DNA of 39,747 nt. Source: Candidatus Woesearchaeota archaeon (GTDB lineage: Archaea; Nanobdellota; Nanobdellia; Woesearchaeales; B72-G16). The position numbers are program-made. Location of the stretch: positions 1 to 39,747 of the forward strand of contig QMQO01000009.1 of the NCBI GenBank assembly GCA_003650545.1, in the 5' to 3' direction. Shown here one piece after another: positions 21,001 to 24,000 of the stretch. How positions within the stretch are numbered: the first letter of the stretch is position 1; each line of letters opens with the position of its first letter.

Positions 21001-24000
21001 AACTGGAATAAAAGAAGAATTAAGAAAGGAATCAGGCTTAAAATAATATACCTGCCTGCAGCTAAAAAATATGGTAAAATACGTGAAAAAATGAAGTTCA
21101 CAGAAGTGAGGTACCTTAGTGAAACCATTACAGCACCTGCTTGGATAGATATATTCCAAGACTTTGTTGTAACTTTTGATTTTTCAAGAGAGATCCCAAT
21201 TGCTTTTTTGATCAAAAGCAGAGCTATTTCAAAAAGCTATAGAAATTATTTTGAACTGATATGGAGACAGTGTAAGTAGTTAAAAAAATTGCAAAATATG
21301 ATACGCTAAATTTACAAATCTACACCATTATAGCTTTTCCATAACCATAATACTTTTCATCATGCTAAACTTAACACCAGGATAAGATTTCTCAATGTTG
21401 TCAAGCATCTTGATAATATCTAACATATACTTATCTCTTTCTTTTTTTGAAAATTTTAGTTTTTTAATCATGCAGTATTTTTCAGCTTCAGCATCAAGTA
21501 CATTTCTCAAAGGAAAAATTTCTTTTTTATTCTTTTTCCAACCCTTGCCCCTAAAAACAGCCCCAAGATAATCACTAACATAATCTTCAAGGGTTGCAGG
21601 AATCACTATTTTATTGTAACTCTTATTAATTCTCTTTAAAACCTTAAAGTTATAGTTTCTCAGTGCATTATCAAGAACATTTTTTAATACTATCGCTCCT
21701 GCGCTGTTATCATCTAACAACATGATTGTGTTTCTGATTTTAACATTATAGTCAACTCTTAATGTTTTTCTTATTCTCTTATCAACAACTTTGAGAAAAC
21801 AACCCTGACAATAGGGATTACTAGAGATGTTAACTGTTGCTTTTCTCTTGCCACATTTTCTGCAGATCATTTTATACAAAATTTAATATTAAAATATTTT
21901 GATAATATTTATAACCAACTCATTTAAATTACTACTAACCAGTGCACACAAACCGAAAAATTTATATATAACCGTTATTAAACTATTATCTATTGAGGGA
22001 AGGTGATATGATACCTATAATACCTTCTCAAATTATATTCCTAATCTATCACCTCTTTTTCCCAAGCAAATGCCTTCGGGCATTTGCCTGGGTTTTAAAA
22101 TCACAATTTAGCTTATGCTCTCTGTTTTTGAATATCTAAATACGATTTATTTTCATACATATATTATTTTCATATACATATGTTTTTCTAATTATTTTCA
22201 TATATATGATTATTTTTTCCTTTTAACCAATTTCTTACCTTTAGGTTTATAGATTTTAATAGCAACAACATTGCTTTTGTAATACAGAATCCCTATCATA
22301 AAGCCAATTATTAATCCAGCAATCAAAAATATAATTAATAACATTTTTGAATAGTGTTTGATCTCTTTCAGATCAACCTTCTCTCCAGGCTGTTCTTCTA
22401 AATATAGATCAAGGTTGCTCAATTCAAGAGAATATTCGTAGTACAACAAAGAAGAATATTTATCTGTCATATTCAGACTGTTTCCATACTCATAATAGCT
22501 ATAAGCAAGTATTGGAAAATTTCCTTTTTCAATTTGTTCCAGTAAGCTTCTTTCAACAGCTATTTTTTTTTGACCAAGGTAATTATTAATGCTATCATTA
22601 CTAACAGTGATGATACTCATATAAAAATTACTCTGAGCTTTTGCTCTGCTAGATTGGAATAAACAAAATTCATAATCCCCTATTTTAGAAGCCATTTTTG
22701 CTTCGTCAACTATTTTCTCAGCTTCTCTAAAGACACCAGGAAAGAACAAGTCAATGTACTGTACACGTTGCTCAGCTTCTGCAAGTTTAGTCGTACACGA
22801 ATTTTTCAAAGCAGAACTATCAAGCCTTAACCTTTTTCCAGGATAATCAAAAAAATCAGACCAGAATAGAGCACTCTCAAACCTTTCTATGCTGTATGCA
22901 AAGTTCATTGCAGCTACCTCACTGTTGTTTATGTTGTCTAAGCCTTTTTTTAGATGGTCCTTGGCGTCAGATAAACGCTCTCTCACAATCATCTTTGTCT
23001 GAAGATTGGTTATAGTATCAGTTTCCGCGTTTTTTATTTTTTCTTCCAAGCTAGAAATCAAGTGTTTGATTTTCAACGCTAACTTCATATAACCCTTCTC
23101 ATCTAATTTATTATTCAAAATCTCTAGATATTTCAATTGAACATTTGCACCAAAACAAAAGCTTGCAGCAGAATAAAAATTACCGTCTTTACGAGCTCTA
23201 ATAGACTTGTTAAACATTTCCATTGCACTTTCTTTAAGTTCTGTCTCATTCTCTTCTAGTTGAATCCCAACACTTTTCTCAATCAAATGTTCAGAGATTG
23301 TACAGATTTTATCTGCAATACTTTTCATCAAATTTGCATATTCACTTGTTGCAACAACATATCCACTTTTCTTTTCATACTTTGTGCCAATAAATTCCAA
23401 CATTCCATCATATAGGTTTGAAACCTCAACAACCTCAACACCTTTTTTCTTTCCATAATAAACTAAGTCAATTGTTTTATTTCCTTCTTCATATAATCTT
23501 TCTCCTATAGGGATCAAAACTTTTTTTATTTCGGCTTTAGCTGCTGCATCAATCTTTGCTTTGAGACCACCTACTGGGCCTATTACACCCCCTGAATTAA
23601 TCGTGCCAGTCACAGAAACATCTTGATCAACAGCTAAGCCATCAAGAGTTGCAATTGTTAATAATGTAATTGCGGAACCGGCACTAGGCCCACCAACTAA
23701 CGCAGACTCAGCCCTTATTGTGTAGAAAAAATCCAACTTGCTGCAATCTTTATTTAGGAAGTCACAGGCAATTTCTTTAGCAATTCTAGCAGACATCTGA
23801 GTATCTAGCTTTGTTATAGGATACGTGTCTATAAAGACGCGGCCATTTCCTTCTTCAATCTCAACAGTGAGTTCAGCAACACCACCAATAAATTCACCAT
23901 TTTGTTTTTCAGCAACAGCTAACAACTTCATCTTGTTAGAAACAGCTTGTACACTTAAAACAAGCAATAATAGTATAAGTAACCATGCGATTTTTTTCAT

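Follow-up and report, generated by a model that had tools for sequence, protein, structure and literature searches.

The window analysed here, the whole 39,747-nucleotide stretch of contig QMQO01000009.1 from a Candidatus Woesearchaeota archaeon, carries on its minus strand a 180-aa open reading frame, P0001, which begins with an ATG at 21870 and ends with the stop codon at 21328-21330, and the reading frame bears out the ORF given in the preliminary description. No Pfam family is named above cut-off for this protein. Its best PDB match is the NcsA of M. maripaludis (6scy), which was obtained in two stretches at the same E value of 6.5e-8 as reported before, and a profile of 127 short-family members reaches 6scy at E 5.7e-23 and PhTtuA at E 1.7e-21. 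The AF2 model of P0001 (pLDDT 93.8) was aligned by VIA with 6scy over 178 residues (Z 17.4, rmsd 2.2) and with P. horikoshii TtuA 5mko at Z 17.0, with TilS behind at 14.1. When its family was compared by hhalign to P0003, the NcsA encoded by the same genome (G000:C4:35864-36772), a profile-profile probability of 99.6 was obtained. By profile, profile-profile, and structure comparison alike, P0001 belongs to NcsA/TtuA in fold and homology.

The protein shares with 6scy and 5mko the fold over 178 of its 180 residues, the N-terminal zinc finger, helix α1, and the C-terminal helices, whereas SGGKDS, CxxC, the third Cys, and the C-terminal finger are features of the enzymes that it does not have. 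In the hhalign alignment, SGGKDS of NcsA is replaced in P0001; a region corresponding to NcsA ~74-139 is deleted together with CxxC, and the loop of the third Cys is shortened, so that the regions holding the three [4Fe-4S] cysteines are deleted or shortened; and the protein stops at a point matching NcsA ~252, short of the C-terminal zinc finger. The motif SG[GS]xDS is found in none of the 150 best homologues of the short family. The loss of the PP-loop motif, the cluster cysteines, and the C-terminal finger described previously is therefore confirmed, except that the PP-loop is gone as a motif while its strand-loop-helix persists as structure. Beside the N-terminal finger and helix α1, the first strand and helix, the strand-helix after the cluster motif, and the C-terminal helices are retained. 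The N-terminal finger is intact in P0001 (C3, C6, C21, and C24), as had been stated, but it is not universal: it is absent from 12 of the 40 genome-derived members (9 of 37, and 3 found later), indicating that the finger is dispensable in the short family. The features are listed in the table.

Table. Features of P0001 and its two neighbouring genes in the window.
Feature	Position	Strand	Evidence or remark
Short NcsA/TtuA paralog P0001, catalytically dead by motif	21328..21870	-	Profile, hhalign, AF2, VIA
N-terminal zinc finger (C3, C6, C21, C24)	21799..21864	-	Cys conservation in 145 homologues
Basic helix α1, residues 22-41 (R32, R34, K35, R38)	21748..21807	-	Conservation, AF2 helix
Degenerate PP-loop, residues 54-59 aligned with SGGKDS	21694..21711	-	hhalign
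Large internal deletion junction, CxxC ligands removed (NcsA ~74-139)	21625..21651	-	Profile, hhalign
C-terminal helical hairpin, residues 147-179 (P164, K167, F168, S169)	21334..21432	-	Conservation, AF2
Membrane S16 (Lon_C) protease-like gene, upstream neighbour	22210..24156	-	Pfam Lon_C; marks the locus by synteny; not thought functionally tied
TrmB-family regulator, convergent, deemed unrelated	20542..21279	+	Most relatives have a PLD-like gene there

Conservation was read from an alignment of 145 of the best 150 homologues, five being omitted for length. The four zinc-finger cysteines are present in 134, 134, 138, and 126 of these sequences, respectively, and beyond the finger, conservation is highest at F25, E30, R32, R34, K35, R38, L102, E128, and P164, followed by K167, F168, and S169. 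The basic residues of helix α1 are found in 131 (R32), 126 (R34), 123 (K35), and 122 (R38) of the 145. In P0003 numbering, R38 of P0001 corresponds to position 35 of NcsA, and F168 and S169 correspond to positions 244 and 245.

Distribution of the short family and its loss together with NcsA

At E 0.001, 392 short-family matches were obtained from 1.84 billion representatives, and the best 150 of them are mostly 160-200 aa long; word-index homologue searches returned just 2 and 9 proteins. The family ranges from 136 to 222 aa in size. A 362-aa member with long low-complexity insertions was also observed (L094:1206-2291), in a genome (G055) where no NcsA was found. Of 61 genomes of the order, 41 carry the short gene, which has a fixed locus (one as a contig-end fragment and one as the 362-aa form), and 53 carry NcsA (52, one of them broken by stops, and one contig-end fragment); the two are present together in 37 of the 41. 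The wide occurrence beside NcsA claimed earlier thus holds, but the counts then given, 33 genomes with the short form and 54 with NcsA, are replaced by 41 and 53 because of a difference in search sensitivity. P0003 is the sole intact family member of its genome, its named homologues are from Woesearchaeota, and its gene is unlinked to that of P0001, the two lying on contigs C4 and C9.

In the tree of archaeal sequences, a branch with SH-aLRT 97 separates all 71 short proteins from 120 NcsA, a split in which long branches limit trust. Six f83-type forms lie nearer to NcsA, and a second origin of the short form within the class is therefore conceivable. Four short-family pairs give dN/dS values of 0.10-0.20 (two further pairs are saturated); these come from relatives of P0001, which itself has no close relative, and purifying selection acts on members of the family. 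The short protein is a real, conserved pseudoenzyme and very probably a subunit.

The genomic neighbourhood could suggest that the short protein acts independently of NcsA, as a stand-alone RNA-binding protein or as a partner of the Lon-like protease or the PLD-like neighbour. When about 1.5 kb of flank was read, a Lon-like gene was found at 29 of 40 loci (in 28 cases upstream and in the same orientation) and a PLD-like gene at 28 of 40; the median net charge of the family is +14; and 4 of the 41 short-gene genomes show no NcsA (G044, G053, G055, and G047, which are 94%, 98%, 88%, and 76% complete). The Lon-like gene, however, is present in all 21 genomes in which the short gene was at that point scored as absent, and in five partner-less genomes the Lon-like and PLD-like genes are adjacent, 45-245 bp apart, leaving an empty site. 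Short forms in other orders of the class have different neighbours. The short gene instead departs with NcsA: among 11 genomes of family f44 (97-100% complete), 7 are without both genes and 4 have both, and in f83 six genomes have both and eight listed genomes have neither. The short gene is lost together with NcsA. Since NcsA-independent action also gives no reason for the complementary residue loss described below, it is considered very unlikely. As a separate observation, the S16 protease-like protein combines Lon_C with a long helical C-terminal part, and its gene often lies downstream of a topoisomerase-like gene.

Residues lost from partnered NcsA and the target position

When the NcsA of short-gene genomes was contrasted with that of the remaining genomes in the 61-genome set, position 35 was the top column, followed by columns 244 and 245, and three marks were chosen accordingly: R35, F/Y/N/H244, and S/G/A245 (P0003 numbering). 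In genomes outside this selection set, R35 is kept in 1 of 30 partnered NcsA compared to 18 of 35 partner-less ones, and the marks at 244 and 245 are each kept in 1 of 33 compared to 23 of 35. In the final set of 121 NcsA rows (5 second copies and 5 gapped rows left out), at least two of the three marks are kept by 42 of the 57 partner-less NcsA but by 1 of the 64 partnered ones, counts that come from related genomes and so are not independent. A tree built without the marked helices requires 9-10 changes of partner status, 5 of them forced by well-supported branches. PGLS on that tree gave t = -10.1 and ranked column 244 first of 295; of the 15 highest-ranked columns, 13 map to the N-terminal part or to the last helices. 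Well-supported branches yield four phylogenetically independent pairs, with a mean of 2.7 going the same way and 0 the opposite way (p 0.25); with just four such pairs, the Nanoarchaeia counts overstate the effect. The marks are also not universal: of 40 intact copies taken from other archaea, 22 have two of the three.

Re-searching of individual genomes gave mixed results. Among four seemingly partner-less genomes whose NcsA is nested among partnered ones, a hidden partner was found in three; these proteins are divergent (136-164 aa), lie between Lon-like and PLD-like genes, and have no N-terminal finger. No hidden partner was found in the fourth (G033). No short partner was found in 11 genomes at least 90% complete whose NcsA mostly has the marks, five of them with an empty site, nor in any of 26 other partner-less genomes. 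A second prediction, for nine partner-less genomes with mark-lacking NcsA, mostly failed: re-search found a partner in one of them (G090). Two others (G081 and G091) carry TtuA-like copies, and for G069 and the four f89 genomes (G082, G092, G099, and G105) no partner was found by profile, by Pth2 synteny, or by single-protein searches. The idea that partnered NcsA drops its own N-terminal zinc finger was discarded, as the finger is kept in 19 of 36 partnered and 9 of 16 partner-less NcsA in the discovery set; overall the values are 38 of 69 and 39 of 51, a weak difference.

The position modified by the pair could be addressed from the residues and neighbours of P0003. The residues E88, R94, R241, and E267 of MmNcsA are of U34 type (PMC10067955), and P0003 has matching E77, R83, and R225, with I251 in the place of E267. 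Its gene belongs to a run that also contains ThiI-like and MiaB-like-B genes, and the NcsA loci of relatives are near genes that read by sequence as ThiS-, IscS-, IscU-, and ThiF-like. Because three of the four U34-type residues are present and such neighbours recur, U34 is the likely target. An enzyme that is still a heterodimer but thiolates U54, as TtuA does, or another position is unlikely, although the best PDB and NCBIfam scores of P0003 are to Pyrococcus TtuA (189 bits compared to 171 for the NcsA equivalog with a cut-off of 500, both far below cut-off) and m5s2U54 occurs in Nanoarchaeum (PMC7337903). A 40-row clade of NcsA (for example, L055, L068, and L218) also resembles TtuA at the positions of E88 and R94 while keeping R241. 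Most genomes, however, hold one intact copy, the true TtuA-like copies form a separate clade, and the methanogen pairs described below carry U34-type residues too, where read. The members of the 40-row clade are mostly the single copy of their genome, and the published U34/U54 markers may fail there. Two genes upstream of NcsA in the genome of P0001, a 265-aa ThiI-like gene was observed (L001:8035-8832, minus strand, G000:C4) with ferredoxin-like and THUMP domains and a TIGR00342 match over 2-209 of 373 positions; its sequence holds no SGGxDS, and it may be another tRNA thiolase that is dead or shortened.

Paired copies in methanogens

No short form of 150-240 aa was found outside the class of P0001 in 48 named archaeal genomes. 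A 172-aa match in G238, a record titled Methanosarcinales, was rejected as a sign of wider spread because its relatives are genomes of P0001's order. That record (L307) and G242, which bears the same title, carry Nanoarchaeia-type genes, and such records may account for the 'Methanobacteriota' label of an Atlas cluster, as could the dead copies of methanogens. No dead copy was found in five other archaeal genomes (2 Thorarchaeota, 1 Sulfolobales, 1 Calditenuaceae, and 1 Bathyarchaeia), and the weak PP-loop matches seen in them all have intact motifs of other families.

A longer dead copy is present in each of Methanoregula, another Methanomicrobiales genome, and one Methanotrichaceae genome. 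When 46 Methanomicrobiales genomes were searched with PF22082, and loci were read in all except G322, G334, G335, G342, G346, G352, and G357, the NcsA tree resolved into two clades, type I and type II. Type I is solo (confirmed) and active by motif in 22 genomes; beside type II, it is intact in 4 genomes and dead in 16. The 21 type II copies are active by motif and never found alone; the second copy of G356 was seen as a search match, and G352 gave a finger match but no intact copy at E 1e-12. The marks at 35, 244, and 245 are kept in 22, 22, and 22 of 22 solo copies and in 16, 15, and 15 of 16 dead copies, compared to 4, 1, and 2 of 21 type II copies; overall, the marks are kept throughout the 22 solo copies and in 15 of the 16 dead ones, as opposed to 1 of the 21 active partners. 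What the dead copies have lost instead are catalytic residues (K54, D55, R83, C125, C128, C217, and R225), and dN/dS is 0.28-0.51 in four methanogen dead-copy pairs. In Methanomicrobiales, the longest dead copy has 306 aa and a single PP-loop lesion, and the shortest has 187 aa.

Type I was inactivated at least twice. Since type I and type II each form one clade, the Methanomicrobiales account for one further event, and Methanotrichaceae for another. Monophyly of all archaeal dead copies was rejected on a 51-row subset (p-AU 0.021). The 306-aa type I copy L479 (G343), which has a single PP-loop lesion, keeps all cysteines, and is nested among Methanoculleus-like solo copies, is a recent inactivation. 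Four Methanomicrobiales genomes (L507-L509, L516-L517, L482, L487, and L493) hold two intact copies, one with the marks and one largely without them, and possibly represent a stage before inactivation.

A dead copy that keeps its pairing surfaces without catalysis could also act as a dominant-negative regulator by poisoning or titrating NcsA homodimers, and a separate locus permits separate control. An inhibitor leaves unexplained, however, why the active copy has lost exactly the residues that the dead copy keeps and why type II is never alone, which makes this role highly improbable.

The heterodimer reading and known two-subunit systems

Taken together, P0001 very probably joins NcsA in a heterodimeric [4Fe-4S] tRNA 2-thiouridine synthase as its non-catalytic subunit, for which we infer physical binding, 1:1 stoichiometry, contact of the kept residues with tRNA, and U34 as the target. 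The unlinked genes, the four short-gene genomes that show no NcsA, the marks not being universal, and the second prediction that mostly failed speak against this reading. The Ctu2-like heterodimer proposed in the preliminary description gains support from the complementary residue loss, the co-loss, the purifying selection in relatives, and the repeat in Methanomicrobiales, all of them evidence independent of structure prediction.

In M. maripaludis, NcsA forms a dimer and bears a catalytic cluster (PMC10067955). The NcsA/TtuA dimer would work asymmetrically on one tRNA, with one subunit binding ATP and giving the cluster as well as the C-terminal zinc finger, and the other giving in trans the basic helix α1 with R38 and the last helix with F168/S169, parts that could serve tRNA positioning or shape the active site of the partner. 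Judged from sequence, R38 and F168/S169 may touch the tRNA or the partner. After duplication, one copy would have kept the trans parts only and shrunk to about 180 aa, while the other would have kept catalysis and lost the trans residues, and with the parts so split each copy would need the other. Such a division of labour in the dimer is the simplest account of the mark counts. On a broader scale, we consider it fairly probable that archaea split an asymmetric NcsA/TtuA homodimer at least three times (in Nanoarchaeia, in Methanomicrobiales with two inactivations, and in Methanotrichaceae) in parallel to Ctu1/Ctu2, such that the 180-aa protein is a minimal Ctu2, R38 and F168/S169 form the trans surface, and the Methanomicrobiales preserve the complete series, with solo enzymes, pairs of intact copies, and dead subunits down to 187 aa.

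According to two papers, U34 thiolation is a two-protein activity in eukaryotes and a one-protein activity in archaea (PMC10067955, 2023; PMC8584467, 2021), and the known NcsA/TtuA members are homodimers of one gene product. Ctu2/Ncs2 resembles the short family as a paralog of the catalytic subunit without the cluster cysteines (PMC10067955), as is found for P0001. In models it occupies the position of the second NcsA protomer, and orienting the tRNA has been proposed as its function, the AF2 Ctu1/Ctu2 model superposing on the MmNcsA dimer (PMC10067955) and Ncs2 contacting the tRNA core in an Ncs2/Ncs6 model (PMC10450187); the role of P0001 is likened to this here. In contrast to Ctu2, which keeps its zinc-finger sites and gains insertions (PMC10067955), the short family has shrunk to 136-222 aa and has no C-terminal finger and often no N-terminal one, P0001 holding the N-terminal finger alone.

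A common origin by one ancient duplication, which would make the short family the true archaeal orthologue of Ctu2/Ncs2, is extremely unlikely. The same role is proposed for both, and ESM features rank a CTU2 cluster at 0.85, which serves as a lead only. Pfam CTU2 (PF10288), however, matches 0 of 127 members at E 0.01, 0 of 36 at E 0.1, and 0 of 13 in a further set; the archaeal dead copies are not one clade; and the two Thorarchaeota gave no dead copy. The short family and Ctu2 appear to be of separate origin. With no PF10288 match and only one finger, the short protein is taken to work like Ctu2 yet is not filed as a member of it. The convergence with Ctu2 suggested earlier is upheld in that the dead copies do not have a single origin, a result that applies among archaeal copies only, as the trees cover archaeal sequences.

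Duplication leading to a heteromer with a non-catalytic subunit is likewise described for Trm6/Trm61, ADAT2/ADAT3, and the split tRNA splicing endonucleases (PMC10067955), which differ in being other enzyme families. The shift from homomer to heteromer is framed in the same source as common in eukaryotes, whereas the split of NcsA recurs within archaea, where the solo, two-intact, and dead states are all extant.

Both what Ctu2 does and how the thiolase family recognizes tRNA are described as unresolved in these papers (PMC10067955 and PMC8584467), and recombinant Ctu1/Ctu2 was not obtained in the 2023 study (PMC10067955). As in the preliminary description, the literature search found no archaeal Ctu2-like protein or dead NcsA paralog in the records listed, nor in passages of PMC4048286, PMC7337903, PMC7138817, and PMC13066941, with subscription journals thinly covered. 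The small archaeal pair would provide a tractable model for a two-subunit thiolase, and the analysis points to the residues that the second subunit probably contributes. The methanogen series (Methanoregula, Methanotrichaceae), in which there are genera with cultured members, allows a test of the path from homodimer to obligate heterodimer. A function would also be given to an unannotated family of several hundred proteins, as represented by the 392 matches.

Several other genes of the genome were observed in passing. On the minus strand of the window, 24507-34235 encodes a 3242-aa secreted or surface protein in which a subtilase-like stretch and a C-terminal membrane anchor were read by eye, and on the plus strand 13921-14970 holds two adjacent, unannotated ORFs of 171-175 aa that are seemingly mutual paralogs. 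On another contig (G000:C2:20082-22190, minus strand), a 703-aa frame contains two PP-loop motifs and is apparently a fusion of two PP-loop enzymes.
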